A DNA stretch of 64,000 nt, from assembly GCA_014803525.1 (NCBI GenBank), contig JAAVBP010000006.1:5430-69429 (forward strand), written 5' to 3'. Positions 26,642 to 55,686 of this stretch are shown here, piece by piece. Below the pieces are notes generated by a model. It was given only the letters and a program-made list of their open reading frames with translations, was not told the origin of the DNA and did no database searches. The DNA comes from a bacterium. Lineage in GTDB: Bacteria > Pseudomonadota > Alphaproteobacteria > Rs-D84. The first letter of the stretch is position 1. Each line of letters opens with the position of its first letter. The position numbers were made by a program, and so were the translations under genes.

Positions 26642-26715
26642 GCGGGCATGGTATAATGGTAGCACGTCAGCTTCCCAAGCTGAAGACGAGGGTTCGATTC
26701 CCTTTGCCCGCACCA
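26642..26715 (+). tRNA. tRNA-Gly(CCC)
   Basis: GCGGGCA/TGCCCGC acceptor, tcagc-ttCCCaa-gctga anticodon arm, GGTTCGATTCC, CCA. Promoter TGGACT-17-TAGAAT at 26602-26630. Confidence 0.96.
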
Positions 26716-32073: not shown

Positions 32074-32898
32074 ATGTTTAAAGGCGAATTTAAGTTCGAT
32101 TTAAATAACGCACTTGACCGGGGACCGTTCTATTTTCCCCAGTACGAACAAGCGTACTGTATCACAAATGAACCAATCGAAGAATGGTTAAAATTAACAC
32201 CCGTCAAAAATCCGCGCGTTTTAACCGTTGCCGCATCGGGCGACCAGCCACTGATGTACGCCGCACACGGTGCGTCGCATGTCGATACATTTGATTTGAC
32301 ACTGAACGCATGTGTAATGTTGGACTTTAAAACATCTGCACTGCAACAACTAAACTTTTCTCAATACTTAGACACAGTCCAGGAATTAAGACACCTGGAT
32401 ATGCTGGCGGCGTCCGAAAATACCATTCGCGTCGTTAGTAATATGCCGCCCCGTACGCGCGCGCTTATGCAAAAAATAATCCGGCACCGCCCAAATGCAT
32501 TCCAGCGCGATATGGATGATGACACCGTATTCCCGTCAAATGAAAACACGTACGCAAAAATGCAACGCGCCACAACAAAGCCCTTTGAGTTTATATGGGC
32601 AAATCTGATGAACGTGCATAATTATATTGATGGAAAGTACGACATCATAAACACATCGAATATTTTTGAGCACTATATAGGCCACGGCAGACTGCCGGCT
32701 GATATAAAAGAAACAATTGAAACCCTGTGGCCACACTTAAATATTGGCGGTTATATCCTGTGCACAACACTATGGCCAACGGTTCCAGATGCACTGAAAC
32801 GCTTTCCAACAACCTGGGCCAAGATTGGCGCCAATATTTCAATACCCAAGAATATAGATTCAAAGTGGACACCCATCATTATTCAAAAAACGAGATAG
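32074..32898 (+). CDS. DUF3419/BtaA-like SAM-dependent methyltransferase-fold protein, paralog 1
   Basis: TNEPI, VLTVAASGDQ, DTFD, YDIINTSNIFE, LNIGG. Ends QKTR. Confidence 0.65.
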   Translation: MFKGEFKFDLNNALDRGPFYFPQYEQAYCITNEPIEEWLKLTPVKNPRVLTVAASGDQPLMYAAHGASHVDTFDLTLNACVMLDFKTSALQQLNFSQYLDTVQELRHLDMLAASENTIRVVSNMPPRTRALMQKIIRHRPNAFQRDMDDDTVFPSNENTYAKMQRATTKPFEFIWANLMNVHNYIDGKYDIINTSNIFEHYIGHGRLPADIKETIETLWPHLNIGGYILCTTLWPTVPDALKRFPTTWAKIGANISIPKNIDSKWTPIIIQKTR

Positions 32899-32903
32899 AA
32901 ATT

Positions 32904-33770
32904 ATGACAACATTCAAAGGTGATTTTACATTCAATTTACAGCGCGCATTAACAGCATATTATGATCCCATGTATGTTAATGCATACCCGACAACAAACG
33001 AACCGATTGAGCAATGGATCCCTTTGATGCCAATAAAAAATCCACGTGTTTTAACCGTCGCGGCATCCGGCGATCAGCCGTTATTGCATGCCGCCACCGG
33101 CGCATCACATATTGACACATTTGACTTAACAATCAATGCCTGCGCGATTATGGATTTTAAAACAGCCGCGCTGCAACAATTGAATCATTCTGAATATTTG
33201 GAAACAATCCATTTATTAAAACACCTGGATGGCATGAATTCTTTCATCTTCTATAACAAGGACGTCAGTGATTTTATAAAAAATTCATTTATACAAATCG
33301 TTAATAACATGCCGGACCGCACACAAGAATTGATGTACCATTTGATATACCAGCGCCCCGACGCCATGCAGCGTGACAGTGACTTTACACGAACATTTCC
33401 AACCAATCCAGAACTGTATAACAAGATACAACAAACCACTAAAAAACCATTTAATTTCATATGGGCTGATTTAATGAATGTATCAAATTATATCGAGGAT
33501 AAATACGATATAATAAATACATCAAATATTTTTGAACACTATATGTATGATCGCCACCATACCAAGGCCGATATCTATATCACCATAAAAAAGCTGTGGC
33601 CACATTTAAACCCGGGCGGTTATCTGCTATGTACAGCCGCCGCCCCTAAAACAATACTGTATTACCAAGGGTTGGAAGAAGTATTATTTGATATGAATGG
33701 TGACATTTCGTTCCCAAGCGTACCAAAAGATAATGCTTTTTATCCAATTCTTATCCAAAAGACGCGTTAG
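32904..33770 (+). CDS. DUF3419/BtaA-like SAM-dependent methyltransferase-fold protein, paralog 2
   Basis: Same motifs as paralog 1. Start ATG 32904 aligns with the paralog N-terminus (FKGxFxF). Ends QKTR. Confidence 0.65.
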   Translation: MTTFKGDFTFNLQRALTAYYDPMYVNAYPTTNEPIEQWIPLMPIKNPRVLTVAASGDQPLLHAATGASHIDTFDLTINACAIMDFKTAALQQLNHSEYLETIHLLKHLDGMNSFIFYNKDVSDFIKNSFIQIVNNMPDRTQELMYHLIYQRPDAMQRDSDFTRTFPTNPELYNKIQQTTKKPFNFIWADLMNVSNYIEDKYDIINTSNIFEHYMYDRHHTKADIYITIKKLWPHLNPGGYLLCTAAAPKTILYYQGLEEVLFDMNGDISFPSVPKDNAFYPILIQKTR

Positions 33771-35955: not shown

Positions 35956-38187
<2,232 letters not shown>

Positions 38188-38288
38188 GATGCATAAAAAT
38201 TAGAACATTTGAAAAAAAATAACAACAGTTTTTTATAGTGTTACATACCTAATATTTACAACAGATTGTTTTTATATAATTCTGTGAA

Positions 38289-38363
38289 CATAGGGGGCGA
38301 TGGTAACACCCCACTTTACCAAAGGGCAACGGAACTATTCGCTTGTTGACACACCCCCATATG
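38289..38363 (+). ncRNA. Candidate structured RNA motif, copy 1
   Basis: P1 ggggg/ccccc, P2 tggtaa/ttacca, core ccaaagggcaacggaactattcgcttgttgacac (38319-38352). TATAAT at 38275-38280. Confidence 0.45.
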
Positions 38364-38555
38364 CATCATTATCACACGACATTTATAAATTATCTATGGG
38401 AACGTTATCTTTTCTTAAAAGATGCATTAATATATTGATTTAAAAATCGATTTGTGCAAGACTGCGGCTGAATCCAATGGGAATTGGGTTCGGGGCTGTG
38501 GTGGCCCACAGGCGCGGCATATCCATAAAATATGTCGTCAAACTACCCCGACTCT

Positions 38556-38636
38556 GTCGGGGAGCCGTTTGCTATATAACAAGGCATAACGCCCAAAGGC
38601 AACGGAACATTCGCTTGTTGACACCAACTCCCCGAC
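38556..38636 (+). ncRNA. Candidate structured RNA motif, copy 2 (5' leader of the LRR protein gene)
   Basis: P1 gtcggggag/ctccccgac, P2 cgtttgc/gcataacg, core ccaaaggcaacggaacattcgcttgttgacac (38593-38624). Confidence 0.5.
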
Positions 38637-38695
38637 CGCCAGTATCCCATGGCGGTTAATTTGTTTTATCCGGCAAATTTGATTCGGAGGGAAAA

Positions 38696-41668
38696 ATGAA
38701 AAAGCTGTTGTTTGCAATATTGTTCACATTCTGTGGCATAACACACTGTGCACACGCCGCTCAAATGATAAATGTTGAATATATCCATTTGCTGATTGAA
38801 CAAAAATGGGGCCTCTCGATTCCATACAATCCAAGTGTCATGAACCCAAAGGTTGCGGCAAATATGGAATACTTGCTAGGGATGGTAGATATCACGAATA
38901 AAAAACTAAACAGTACAGCAACGACAGATTATCTGCACAGTGAATATGCAACAAAATATGCGGCCGACACCGTTGCAGCAATTGATGCGACCGATCGCTT
39001 GGTTAAGATAGAACCAAAGTTCTGGGTCACGACCACCGCCGACACGGCCATCTTTGAATTTACGATGTCGGCCGCCGGTACATTTATGGTTGATTGGGGT
39101 GATGGAACCAAGGATATAATCAAACGCCGGGATACGACGGTCGAAACATACAGCCACACATACAATGTCGCCGGCACATACACCATTGCTATGGGTGGCC
39201 GCGCCATGGAATATAGTACAGAAGTGTATACTGCCCCCATTTCATTTGCTAATAATAAAAATGTTGCGGGGATTTCTGGTCATTTGGGGCATATATTTGG
39301 AACAATTGATGATGGGTCAAAATTTGGCCAGCAACCGGTATTTTCCAGTGTGTTTTTGAACAATACAAATTTAAGTGGCACCATTCCCGAAGAATTATTC
39401 GATGGCGTACATGGCCGAACAGTTCTTGGTATGTTTAACGGCACGTTTAATGGATGCGCAAACCTGACGGGGCACATACCGGGAAAGCTGTTCGCGGGCA
39501 TATCTGGTGCGCCACAGGTAAATATATTTTTTAATACTTTTTATGGCTGCAAAGGACTTGAAGGATCGATCCCCGAAGATTTATTTGCCGGCATCAAAGG
39601 AAAACCACGACTAAGAGCATTTGCGCACACATTCCTAAATTGCAGCGGTTTAACAGGCTCAATACCAGAGCAGTTATTTGCTGGGATTACAGGAACCCCA
39701 GCGGAAACTATGTTTGGTGGCACATTTCAGGGATGCACAGGATTGAGCGGTAACATTCCAGATAATCTGTTTGCCGGGATAAAAGGTGCTCCCGCCGACA
39801 GCATGTTTGGCAATACATTTTATGGATGCAGCGGTCTGACGGGACCGATTCCCGAAAACCTGTTTGCGGATATATCCGGCGCGCCAGCAGAGAGTATGTT
39901 TATCGCCACATTTAATGGGTGCAGTGGGCTAACCGGTTCCATTCCAGAAAAACTATTTGCTGGGATATCCGGCGCCCCGGCAGATTCGATGTTCCAGGAA
40001 ACATTTGACCGTTGCACCGGATTGACAGGTTCTATTCCGGAAAAGTTATTTGCCGGAATATCGGGCGCCCCGGCAGAGAGTATGTTTCATAGCACATTTG
40101 AACGTTGCACCGGATTGACCGGTACCATTCCAGAAAAGTTATTTGCAGGAATATCTGGCAAACCGGCAAATGCTATGTTTTGGGATACATTTAACCGAGA
40201 CGAGAATCTGACCGGGTCAATCCCAGAGAATCTATTTTCAGGGATCGTGGGCGCGCCTGCCGAACACATGTTTGGATTTACATTTTATGGATGCAGTGGC
40301 CTAACCGGTTCAATACCGGCTGGATTGTTTAGTGGGATATCCGGCCATTATATACCAGAGGCATTTCAAAGAACATTTAGCTATACCAGCAGATTAAGTG
40401 GTTGCATACCAGACGCCTTGTTTGCGGGTATTAACGATGCAGATTTGACAGACATTATACAATCCGATGAACCATTTTTTGAATCTGGTGTGACACAATA
40501 TTTATGCTCTGTTTTGGCCCCCAAATTTTTTGTAACAACGACCAGTGACACAAAAACATTTGAATTTAACGTGACGGCCGACGGCATATTTAATATCGAT
40601 TGGGGCGATGGCACATCGGAAGTAAATCAACACATAAACACCGATAAAACCACATATTCACATACATATACAACCCCGGGTGAATATAAAATTGGCATTG
40701 GCGGTCATGCGACAGAATACGCCTCAAACGCCCGCAATTATTCTGTGATATCATTTGCAGAAAATAAAAACGTGGCGGGCATTGATGGGTCGCTTGGCGC
40801 AATATTCTCAACTATTGATGGCGAGACCCCGAACCAGCGCCAACCCAGATTCTATCAAACATTTTACAACTGCACCAACCTGACCAGTGCGATTCCAGAA
40901 AACCTGTTTTCGGGGATATCCGGCGCCCCGGCATCCGGCATGTTTAGCGGCACTTTTGAAAAGACCGGATTAACCGGATCTATACCGGCAGGGCTGTTTG
41001 CAGATATACGCGGCGAACCATCCACGCAGCTCTTTTATCATACTTTTGAGGACTGCAAAGGTTTAACCGGCGAAATCCCTGCGAATTTGTTTGCCGGAAT
41101 ACATGGCGCCCCATCAAACCAGTTGTTTTATGCCGCATTCAGGGGTTGCAGTAATCTTAGCGGCCAAATACCAGAAAGCCTGTTCGCAGGCATCCAAGGC
41201 ACCCCAGCCGAAGGCATGTTTAACAGCACATTTTTTAATTGCAGCAAATTAACAGGCAGCATCCCGGCAAAACTGTTCGCCGGAATATCGGGCGCCCCGA
41301 AAAAAGATATGTTCCGTGATACATTTTTTAGTTGCAGTGGCCTGACCGGCGCAATACCTGAAAAATTATTTGCGGGGATATCAGGTGTGCCGGCAGAATA
41401 TATGTTTCATCGCACATTCCACAGTTGTCGTGGTCTAACATCGATTCCCGCAAACCTGTTCGGTGATATATCTGGCCCAGCCCAATCAAATATGTTTAGC
41501 AGCATGTTTTTTGCTTGCAAGGGGCTGACCGGACCGTCTGCACGGATAAACGGTAAATACCTGTATGAAATATGGCCAGACTCAGCCGACGATCAGGTTG
41601 GCAGCTGTTATACCAACGATACGGAACTGGATGACTATGCCAACATTCCAGAAATCTGGAAACAGTAA
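38696..41668 (+). CDS. Secreted surface protein: 2 x [PKD-like domain + 31-aa leucine-rich repeat array]
   Basis: Signal peptide, GGAGG SD, DWGDGT...SHTY...GxY twice, about 20 repeats of FxxTFxGCxxLTGxIPExLFAGIxGAPAxxM. Confidence 0.85.
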   Translation: MKKLLFAILFTFCGITHCAHAAQMINVEYIHLLIEQKWGLSIPYNPSVMNPKVAANMEYLLGMVDITNKKLNSTATTDYLHSEYATKYAADTVAAIDATDRLVKIEPKFWVTTTADTAIFEFTMSAAGTFMVDWGDGTKDIIKRRDTTVETYSHTYNVAGTYTIAMGGRAMEYSTEVYTAPISFANNKNVAGISGHLGHIFGTIDDGSKFGQQPVFSSVFLNNTNLSGTIPEELFDGVHGRTVLGMFNGTFNGCANLTGHIPGKLFAGISGAPQVNIFFNTFYGCKGLEGSIPEDLFAGIKGKPRLRAFAHTFLNCSGLTGSIPEQLFAGITGTPAETMFGGTFQGCTGLSGNIPDNLFAGIKGAPADSMFGNTFYGCSGLTGPIPENLFADISGAPAESMFIATFNGCSGLTGSIPEKLFAGISGAPADSMFQETFDRCTGLTGSIPEKLFAGISGAPAESMFHSTFERCTGLTGTIPEKLFAGISGKPANAMFWDTFNRDENLTGSIPENLFSGIVGAPAEHMFGFTFYGCSGLTGSIPAGLFSGISGHYIPEAFQRTFSYTSRLSGCIPDALFAGINDADLTDIIQSDEPFFESGVTQYLCSVLAPKFFVTTTSDTKTFEFNVTADGIFNIDWGDGTSEVNQHINTDKTTYSHTYTTPGEYKIGIGGHATEYASNARNYSVISFAENKNVAGIDGSLGAIFSTIDGETPNQRQPRFYQTFYNCTNLTSAIPENLFSGISGAPASGMFSGTFEKTGLTGSIPAGLFADIRGEPSTQLFYHTFEDCKGLTGEIPANLFAGIHGAPSNQLFYAAFRGCSNLSGQIPESLFAGIQGTPAEGMFNSTFFNCSKLTGSIPAKLFAGISGAPKKDMFRDTFFSCSGLTGAIPEKLFAGISGVPAEYMFHRTFHSCRGLTSIPANLFGDISGPAQSNMFSSMFFACKGLTGPSARINGKYLYEIWPDSADDQVGSCYTNDTELDDYANIPEIWKQ

Positions 41669-55209: not shown

Positions 55210-55253
55210 TTTCGTTTGAATTTTCATAAAATACTGATAGAATACCACGCGTA

Positions 55254-55569
55254 AGATGCGCAGGACATAGCTGGCTCGCAAGAGCTGGAGGAAAGTCCGG
55301 ACTGCACGGGACAGCATACCGGTTAACGGCCGGGCGGGGTGACCCGACGATCAGAGGAACAGTGACGAATCGATTAAGTTCGAGTGAAACGGCCAATCTC
55401 TATGTGCAGCAACTTCAAATAGGCCCCCAATGACAGTCCCAGGAGGGGGCGGGTAGAAGGCTTGACGGCCATGGGAACATGGTTCGCAGACTAATTATGT
55501 CCACTACCCGGGCGTGGTTGTGAAAAGACTGGGCCCGTGGCAGGACAGAATCCGGCTTATCGTGCATCT
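55254..55569 (+). ncRNA. rnpB: RNase P RNA
   Basis: GAGGAAAGTCCGG and ACAGAATCCGGCTTA conserved regions, P1 agatgcgc/gtgcatct, P6 gggac/gtccc. Promoter upstream and terminator at 55574-55602. Confidence 0.95.
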
Positions 55570-55686
55570 GCACGCCGCCCCCGCGGGGGCGGTTGTTTTT
55601 TTGATCCCCCTCCCACGATGGCAAAATCTAGACCGAGCTCAGCACAGCTAACTTTTTCACTAAAAATCCCGCCATCCGGCGGGATT

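Follow-up and report, generated by a model that had tools for sequence, protein, structure and literature searches.

Why should the same 33-nt core occur twice in the gap ahead of a gene for a likely surface protein, and what kind of element does it belong to? The gap lies within the window, by which we mean the whole stretch of 64,000 nucleotides that was analysed, in a host genome of 1.08 Mb in 27 contigs. On one side it is bounded by a divergent DNA topoisomerase IV / gyrase subunit A gene (35956..38187, reverse strand; ORF list, with Pfam matches PF00521 and PF03989), which we take to be parC. On the other side is the gene for a 990-aa protein (38696..41668, forward strand; ORF list and Pfam), likely a surface protein and one of a large paralogous family, with a Shine-Dalgarno-like GGAGGG at 38686..38691 on the same strand. 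The protein has a signal-peptide-like N-terminus (judged by eye), 31-residue LRR-like repeats and two weak PKD-like segments (Pfam, with PKD below the cut-off); PDB sequences gave no match to it and NCBIfam weak short matches only. Elsewhere the window holds an RNase P class A RNA (55252-55575), two tRNAs (26642-26712 and 2852-2937) and, at 32074-33770, two tandem paralogous ORFs of 274 and 347 aa (ORF caller) that look methyltransferase-like by eye.

An earlier note on this DNA placed the core in a repeated three-way junction and took it for an undescribed cis-regulatory RNA, a riboswitch or protein-binding leader controlling an adhesin, with the first copy possibly a free-standing decoy small RNA. 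The repeat itself is real: the core lies at 38319-38352 (copy 1) and 38593-38624 (copy 2), giving two matches against none in 100 shuffles, and the copies differ by two single-base insertions, both in copy 1. The two competing partners described for GTCGGGG(AG) at 38556 are present as well, at 38546-38552 and 38628-38636, as is the terminator-like hairpin at 38634-38657 with its T-rich tail. The TATAAT is present too, at 38275; it has no normally spaced -35, and a consensus scan called no forward-strand promoter here. The hairpin caacgg/ttgttg proposed within the core is predicted in copy 1 and not in copy 2. For copy 2 the proposed fold has to be replaced: the minimum free energy (MFE) structure pairs CCGTTTGC (38565-72) with GGCAACGG (38598-605) and not with GCATAACG, and across 30 family members the helix of CCGTTTGC and GGCAACGG covaries, with double changes in 5/5 pairs. 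No third copy of the core exists in the 1.08-Mb genome. With up to three mismatches it is found in 2/61 genomes, intact only in close subtypes; the exact core has no match in metagenome contigs and two in genome contigs, one being a relative's full leader and the other an unrelated planctomycete sequence.

What does recur is the sequence around copy 2. A search of the host genome with the whole gap matched homologs of 38457-38670, not of the core, and an iterated profile brought these to 11 full paralogs and two partial ones. A second leader subfamily adds 13 further copies, one of which is the partial match on contig C25 (contig:position, C2:189, C4:44647, C4:118732, C4:170419, C4:170914, C5:21904, C5:33820, C5:47277, C5:61277, C14:10067, C20:7256, C22:15445 and C25:7198). 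By blastn the leader is present in 98/121 genomes of the genus, and a covariance model finds its 3' domain in 33/41 genomes of the order. In each of the 11 full copies, a hairpin opens the leader a few bases past a -10-like box, and a terminator-like hairpin closes it. A sense ORF of at least 100 aa starts within 100 nt of 7/11 host-genome copies, and a looser sense-gene test is passed by 38/40 held-out copies, these being the 40 listed of 48 matches in three other genomes (G081, G132 and G096). The random orientation relative to genes that would have pointed to a MITE or IS end was not seen; family copies are strand-consistent with the genes behind them, which are mutually unrelated by eye, many having signal-peptide-like starts. 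For comparisons across members, a 36-member set leaves out five partial or duplicate loci, alignment A1 six near-duplicates, and alignment A2 the window copy and the copy at C5:42948. A GC-rich palindromic, REP-like repeat family, separate from the leader, also occurs in the host genome (C2:9408, C2:58255, C4:89517, C4:103059, C4:156019, C4:171400, C5:192, C5:42161 and C5:42318).

Judged by comparison with these homologs, copy 2 forms the 3' portion of a leader of about 205 nt (38469-38669) that runs from a promoter-like site to a predicted intrinsic terminator, all on the forward strand; the structured element reaches about 85 nt further 5' (38469-38555) than had been described. The putative promoter, at 38435..38463, consists of TTGATT, a 17-nt spacer and AAGACT, a weak -10. 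It is recognized by homology to related cassettes, since the consensus scan does not call it, and the stretch travels with the leader, having homologs upstream of the copy at C6:1422 and of four leaders in relatives (L007, L016, L022 and L034). The leader opens with a hairpin, P1 (38469..38492; fold prediction and covariation), that has a GGGA loop; this loop and the 3' arm of P1 have complements in the 5' arm and loop of the terminator. A second hairpin, P2 (38493..38507), holds in its loop a predicted target word, a1 (UGGUG, 38499-38503), directly followed by a second, b1 (ACAGGCG, 38508..38514). P3 (38514..38538), short in the subtype of copy 2, and a linker, CCCCGAC (38546..38552), come next; the linker is able to sequester the 5' strand of the domain that follows, in a helix with double changes in 5/7 pairs. 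This domain, at 38555..38640, is sRNA-Xcc1/C4-like by fold, covariation and a score of 74.2 bits on a model of the family. It comprises a closing stem (38556-64/38628-36), the arm of CCGTTTGC and GGCAACGG (38565-72/38598-605), a hairpin (38606-19) carrying the word b' (CGCUUGU, 38612-18) and a junction strand with the word a' (CACCA, 38622-26), and it has in this way the layout of sRNA-Xcc1: closing stem, arm with internal loop, second hairpin and 3' junction strand. The terminator-like hairpin (38634-38657) with its T-rich tail (together 38634..38669) overlaps the closing stem of the domain by 3 nt. Only 7/36 copies, the window copy among them, have a tRNA-like NCCA end after the stem.

The earlier idea that both copies of the core form one covarying three-way junction holds for copy 2 alone. 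On a family covariance model built without either copy, copy 2 scores the 74.2 bits given above and copy 1 scores 5.8 bits (E 3.2), which is within noise. The family sequences nonetheless carry not one fold but two. In fold A a long zipper (b1:b', a1:a' and GGGG:CCCC) is accompanied by the linker hairpin; in fold B the three-way-junction domain is closed and a' and b' are exposed. Over 30 sequences, fold A (zipper plus terminator) is 94.2% paired with double changes in 32/47 pairs, among them 5/6 of the a helix and 5/5 of the b helix, and fold B has double changes in 20/31 pairs, among them 6/9 of the closing stem, counts that overstate, because the structures were drawn from the same 30 sequences and kin are not independent. 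Both folds exceed all 500 shuffles and all slid controls. As far as comparison of sequences can show it, two mutually exclusive folds are thus conserved. This much of the earlier note is borne out: the LRR gene is preceded by a structured, cis-placed and unlisted leader that has a terminator and pairings excluding one another. A search of the region against Rfam returned no family at the gathering score and no useful match at E<=10.

The same alignment speaks to what the core is. The leader has the build of an expression platform with exclusive terminator and antiterminator pairings, and this layout would suit a metabolite- or protein-sensing riboswitch with the 33-nt core as aptamer and copy 1 as decoy. 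An internal-loop motif in the domain arm is conserved and could bind something, and a second messenger would be in keeping with the many copies that stand ahead of likely surface proteins. That motif is, however, the sole conserved loop or junction part. The core is not conserved in the family and survives intact in close subtypes alone. Variability peaks in its loop and junction words, and these change together with two upstream sites, which points to antisense addressing rather than to a binding pocket. The seemingly unrelated downstream genes, the lack of an Rfam riboswitch match and the absence of the family fold from copy 1 also stand against this reading, and we regard it as very unlikely. 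The c-di-GMP, c-di-AMP, FMN and yybP riboswitch classes, considered as candidates, were dropped by eye and had no Rfam support.

The two upstream sites are a1 and b1. Within each leader, the hairpin-loop word b' and the junction word a' are complementary to b1 and a1, the window pairs being UGGUG:CACCA for a1:a' and ACAGGCG:CGCUUGU for b1:b'. Among the 11 paralogs, own pairings score a mean of 6.9 against 3.9 for foreign ones at a1:a' and 7.8 against 3.7 at b1:b' (each reached in 0 of 100000 permutations), the own b site is the best in 11/11, and in the three held-out genomes the own upstream sites are best in 15/15, 11/12 and 12/13 cases (38/40 together; 0 of 20000 permutations each), although all permutation counts overstate because kin are not independent. 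The second subfamily behaves alike, with own upstream sites best in 10/13. Such codes are not fully private, as some paralogs have an a word in common and foreign pairs score 13 or more in 24/210, 9/132 and 14/156 cases; the weakest code among the 11 paralogs is that of the window copy (5 + 7 pairs). By the same comparisons, the 33-nt core is this copy's address, and it differs in each paralog. A corresponding code is restricted to the upstream side: for a2/b2 sites downstream, own pairings in the host genome score 10.18 and foreign ones 10.15, and three other genomes gave no significant difference.

The reading we favour, with reasonable though limited confidence, is that copy 2 is a C4/sRNA-Xcc1-like domain, the leader likely being an antisense-controlled transcription attenuator of the LRR gene and copy 1 likely a leftover. 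Where the cell contains no matching RNA, the zipper would assemble as the leader is transcribed and extend into the terminator arm as that arm emerges, which would result in read-through. From transcripts that do terminate, the domain would be released as a stable small RNA, cut by RNase P if the analogy with c4 holds. The freed RNA could then bind a1 and b1 on new transcripts of the same code and block the zipper, so that the terminator forms. Each code would in this way have an OFF state of its own that sustains itself, like that of the CI RNA of P4. The direction of the switch is inferred, by analogy and from the folding of growing transcripts rather than from equilibrium energies. In the growing window transcript the zipper is in place by 38626, and when the transcript ends at 38651 the MFE structure carries it on into the terminator arm; with the 3' arm of the terminator transcribed as well, the terminator prevails. 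The pairing of the P1 loop and 3' arm with the terminator is copy-specific (177 of 100000 permutations in the host genome, 47 of 100000 among 32 distinct members); for the P1 loop and terminator loop alone, no copy specificity was found in the host genome (13683 of 100000).

The equilibrium energies show neither a switch nor its direction, since blocking a1 and b1 moves few paralogs, and both ways. With these sites free the terminator forms in 10/11 paralogs; blocking them raises it in the copy at C7:42510 only (from 0.0 to 0.8-0.9), lowers it in two others (on C24 and at C4:71422) and does not move the window copy from 0.95. Neither copy 1 nor copy 2 gained from cofolding, by a method that cannot model loop-loop contacts. 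Fold A is the MFE structure or within 0.6 kcal/mol of it in 11/11 precursors and fold B is worse by 3.5-21 kcal/mol in all 11, which leaves the first production of free RNA unexplained. These energies, with the near-independence of the equilibrium terminator probability from a1 and b1 and the lack of a2/b2 sites, would suit a zipper that acts in cis only, masking the small RNA in its precursor or setting a folding race, and any RNA released would hit other targets. The agent that flips the switch would then be a protein, polymerase speed, temperature or the RNA of an incoming mobile element; the attenuating Brt1 leader of Bartonella is reported to be heme-responsive (PMC8070961, in the part available), and relatives have intact stand-alone domains for which no matching leader was found. 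Yet a helix working in cis needs no presentation of words in a hairpin loop and a junction, and fold B is kept with covarying pairs; the RF02221 members that show the full c4 layout have this fold too. The presence of many codes per genome also fits selection against cross-talk in trans. On balance we judge cis-only action unlikely.

Antisense control by the leader's own domain being the reading preferred here, the place of copy 1 has to be considered. Copy 1 (38284..38402, forward strand) is probably a truncated leader remnant and has the same loop word as copy 2. Between its -10-like TATAAT (38275..38280) and TGAAC, the sequence at which leaders of the family begin, there are 4 nt, and a TATAAT is found at the same position in relatives that have a full leader in this parC-divergent slot (L103, L107 and L108). 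A closing stem of 9 pairs is predicted (38289-38297/38354-38363), followed by a decayed terminator and an old ribosome-site tail (38367-38402). The tail aligns to the terminator and ribosome-site region of a leader in a relative (L007; 0 of 500 shuffles), and same-code leaders in four public sequencing runs continue into exactly this tail. Among the public runs listed, none is an RNA data set and none contains more than 0.09 of the sequence words; the four examined cover conserved leader parts only, none of them copy 1. For the 5' half of copy 1, likeness to the P2/b1 region of two leaders in relatives (L023 and L103; 85 of 500 shuffles) and to the 5' halves of domains (87 of 500) is not significant. 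Together these comparisons suggest that copy 1 is probably a decayed, truncated earlier copy of the same cassette. Two further observations concern this region. The old ribosome-site tail at 38395-38401 is complementary to the copy 2 terminator loop (38645-38651); with this tail, in a transcript from the upstream TATAAT, the terminator is predicted to form with a probability of 0.6 instead of 0.96. In the donor cassette the loop may in addition serve as an anti-SD. A lone 5' piece (P1 and P2, no domain), the counterpart of copy 1, is found in the host genome at C4:150491-150541, and it is possibly another relic or a target-only site.

Could copy 1 still work, as a stand-alone antisense RNA with a promoter of its own that locks the leader of copy 2 through the shared b' word? 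It has its own TATAAT, a core nearly identical to that of copy 2 despite different flanks, a surviving closing stem and a mutated terminator 3' arm among neighbouring bases that are kept. Relatives, too, have four intact units of the domain alone, two of them at the parC-divergent slot: L096 and L152 in genome G130, and L097/L133 and L139 in genome G003. Each of these has its own TATAAT-like -10 box and no terminator, and they head tandem arrays of two full leaders. They do not fully match their neighbours' codes, however, and strict patterns for the cognate targets of three of them (all except L096) found none in the two genomes; the pattern matches, five of which were read, were the RNA itself or coding or unrelated DNA. 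Against the family model copy 1 itself reaches only 5.8 bits; it has a broken a' word and a b' that is predicted to be mostly paired, and in a long transcript no cis pairing of this b' with b1 is predicted (probability <=0.002). None of the 40 held-out domains of the window's subfamily stands alone, and neither the slot in 29 relatives nor the metagenome scan yielded a second example of copy 1. A lock by copy 1 is accordingly doubtful in our view, and the decoy small RNA of the earlier note, considering the broken junction word, the loop word that is predicted to be buried and the decayed terminator and ribosome-site tail behind it, is weak as well.

The surroundings of the leader vary. From its contents in 29 relatives, the gap upstream of parC is a variable slot in the genus, with a full leader in 3/29 (L103, L107 and L108). 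The relative closest at parC (L092) has there an LRR-family gene and a segment flanked by inverted repeats. Another conserved, structured-looking leader occupies the slot in 7/29 relatives (L100, L104, L106, L109, L112, L115 and L116); its signature is absent from the host genome. That slot and downstream gene change between relatives, that same-code cassettes precede other genes in the four public runs and that members occur on two viral-collection contigs would all fit a small cassette, mobile or REP/MITE-like, that does not regulate its neighbour. Against this stand the strand-specific order of promoter, leader, terminator and gene, in the 7/11 host-genome and 38/40 held-out copies noted above, and the compensatory changes that keep two folds. 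Mobility and regulation are in any case not exclusive, and a cassette without effect is the least probable of the readings considered. Of the two leaders on viral-collection contigs (L244 and L245), one adjoins a long divergent ORF and the other precedes a Gly/Pro-rich, exported-looking protein; a blastn search of a phage collection gave no match.

The paralogs of the LRR gene offer a further comparison for an attenuator at this position. Among 22 LRR-family starts examined in the host genome, a segment flanked by inverted repeats is found in one orientation at 16 (for example C1:29584, C8:12611 and C3:10157), in the other at three (C10:12046, C22:4708 and C9:58371) and in neither at three, the window gene being one of the last; of the other 21 starts, 19 have it. 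The segments, of 70-85 bp between imperfect inverted repeats of about 18 bp, lie directly before the ribosome site and are likely invertible promoters. The leader stands where paralogs have this likely invertible promoter, a position that fits an on/off role.

A broader reading, which we offer tentatively as one that could be right but on balance probably is not, is that a phage immunity RNA has been domesticated into a heritable switch made of RNA only. At least 24 leaders would each be locked OFF by their own cut RNA through a private two-word code, interchangeable with an invertible promoter at the same surface-protein family; stand-alone domains, perhaps copy 1 among them, would be locks in trans, and sRNA-Xcc1 would be a c4-type immunity RNA and not a virulence small RNA. 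If true, a phage antisense-immunity device would now be a general-purpose regulator in gut Alphaproteobacteria with tiny genomes, providing control of surface proteins resembling phase variation without DNA rearrangement, as well as a natural set of near-orthogonal RNA switches. It would also give a concrete mechanism for sRNA-Xcc1, whose mode of action is unstated in those portions of the literature that were covered. The repeat that was originally flagged would then be the smaller part of the story, copy 1 being probably a scar.

How the family relates to known RNAs can be asked most directly of sRNA-Xcc1 (RF02221). The expectation that the element would match no known Rfam family holds at the cut-off and gives way below it: six of the 11 paralogs give full-length alignments to RF02221 (87 model positions) with 26.7-43.6 bits, against a cut-off of 53, and neither window copy matches. 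A genome-wide search with RF02221 gave four matches, all on 3' domains of the family, and the models RF01695 (C4) and RF03163 (c4-a1b1) found nothing significant in the genome. Copy 2 is, on these comparisons, a distant relative of sRNA-Xcc1 and not a member by score; the kinship is distant, as the family model R1 recovers only 2/30 RF02221 loci. These 30 loci are the best of a phylum search (L061-L090), 24 of them over the cut-off, and among them the own upstream a1/b1 sites are best in 24/30 and the own downstream sites, near the ribosome site, in 17/30 (each 0 of 100000 permutations). Five of six proteins downstream of RF02221 loci, picked by eye, are of the Bro-N/P22-antirepressor or Rha type, one of them below the curated cut-off. 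It appears from this that RF02221 loci have the full c4 layout and that the family described here has only its upstream half, with a terminator in place of a2/b2. The two share the three-way-junction fold, the arm-loop motif and the upstream a1/b1 code, but RF02221 loci often come with a2/b2 and antirepressor-type genes, whereas in the family a terminator is present, the 5' leader is longer and the genes are of host type. sRNA-Xcc1 has been treated as a trans-acting virulence small RNA (PMC12189769, as far as the text was available). The openly available literature covered contains no description of this leader family or of an Xcc1 code.

In phage P1, according to the accessible parts of the source, the loops a' and b' of the c4 RNA bind their target sites after processing by RNase P, with b' covering the ribosome site (PMC5320573); in c4 systems such as those of P1 and P7, a1 occupies a hairpin loop and b1 follows directly on the 3' side (PMC2864571, in the part available). 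Our family is alike in that its leader contains a small folded RNA with two single-stranded words, that variable words set specificity (PMC5320573, PMC2864571, within the same parts) and that a1 is likewise found in a hairpin loop and directly followed by b1. It differs in having no match to the c4 models, no a2/b2 and no downstream antirepressor, the 990-aa LRR/PKD-like protein standing there instead, and in having an intrinsic terminator; both words vary in the family, and there are at least 24 chromosomal copies in a 1.08-Mb genome. Lacking a2/b2, the family would have no rho-type or ribosome-blocking step as in c4. The closest working logic is that of the CI RNA of P4, a processed leader antisense RNA that pairs with seqA and seqC and prematurely terminates its own operon (PMC4825925, from the part available). 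This likeness is one of design; the family has no downstream target like seqC, and its processing and action in trans are putative.

Two groups of chromosomal RNAs are also comparable, within the portions of the reports that could be consulted. Brt1-9 of Bartonella are multi-copy alphaproteobacterial RNAs of about 200 nt with an attenuating end hairpin before a gene and a link to adhesin control (PMC5387305, PMC8070961); in Brt1, a leader of approximately 200 nt, it is the 3' hairpin that attenuates the gene behind it (PMC8070961). They differ, in a comparison made by description only, in preceding HTH genes exclusively and in being 74-100% alike (PMC5387305). The Group 1 C4-like small RNAs of Acinetobacter baumannii share with our family the presence of many chromosomal C4-type RNAs per genome, processing from longer transcripts and variable a' words, but they match the C4 motif, and the portion of the report available describes no self-address coupled to a terminator (PMC5320573). 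Set against these systems and judged from sequence, the leader follows the antisense design of c4 and CI, with a putative intrinsic terminator where their downstream sites would be.
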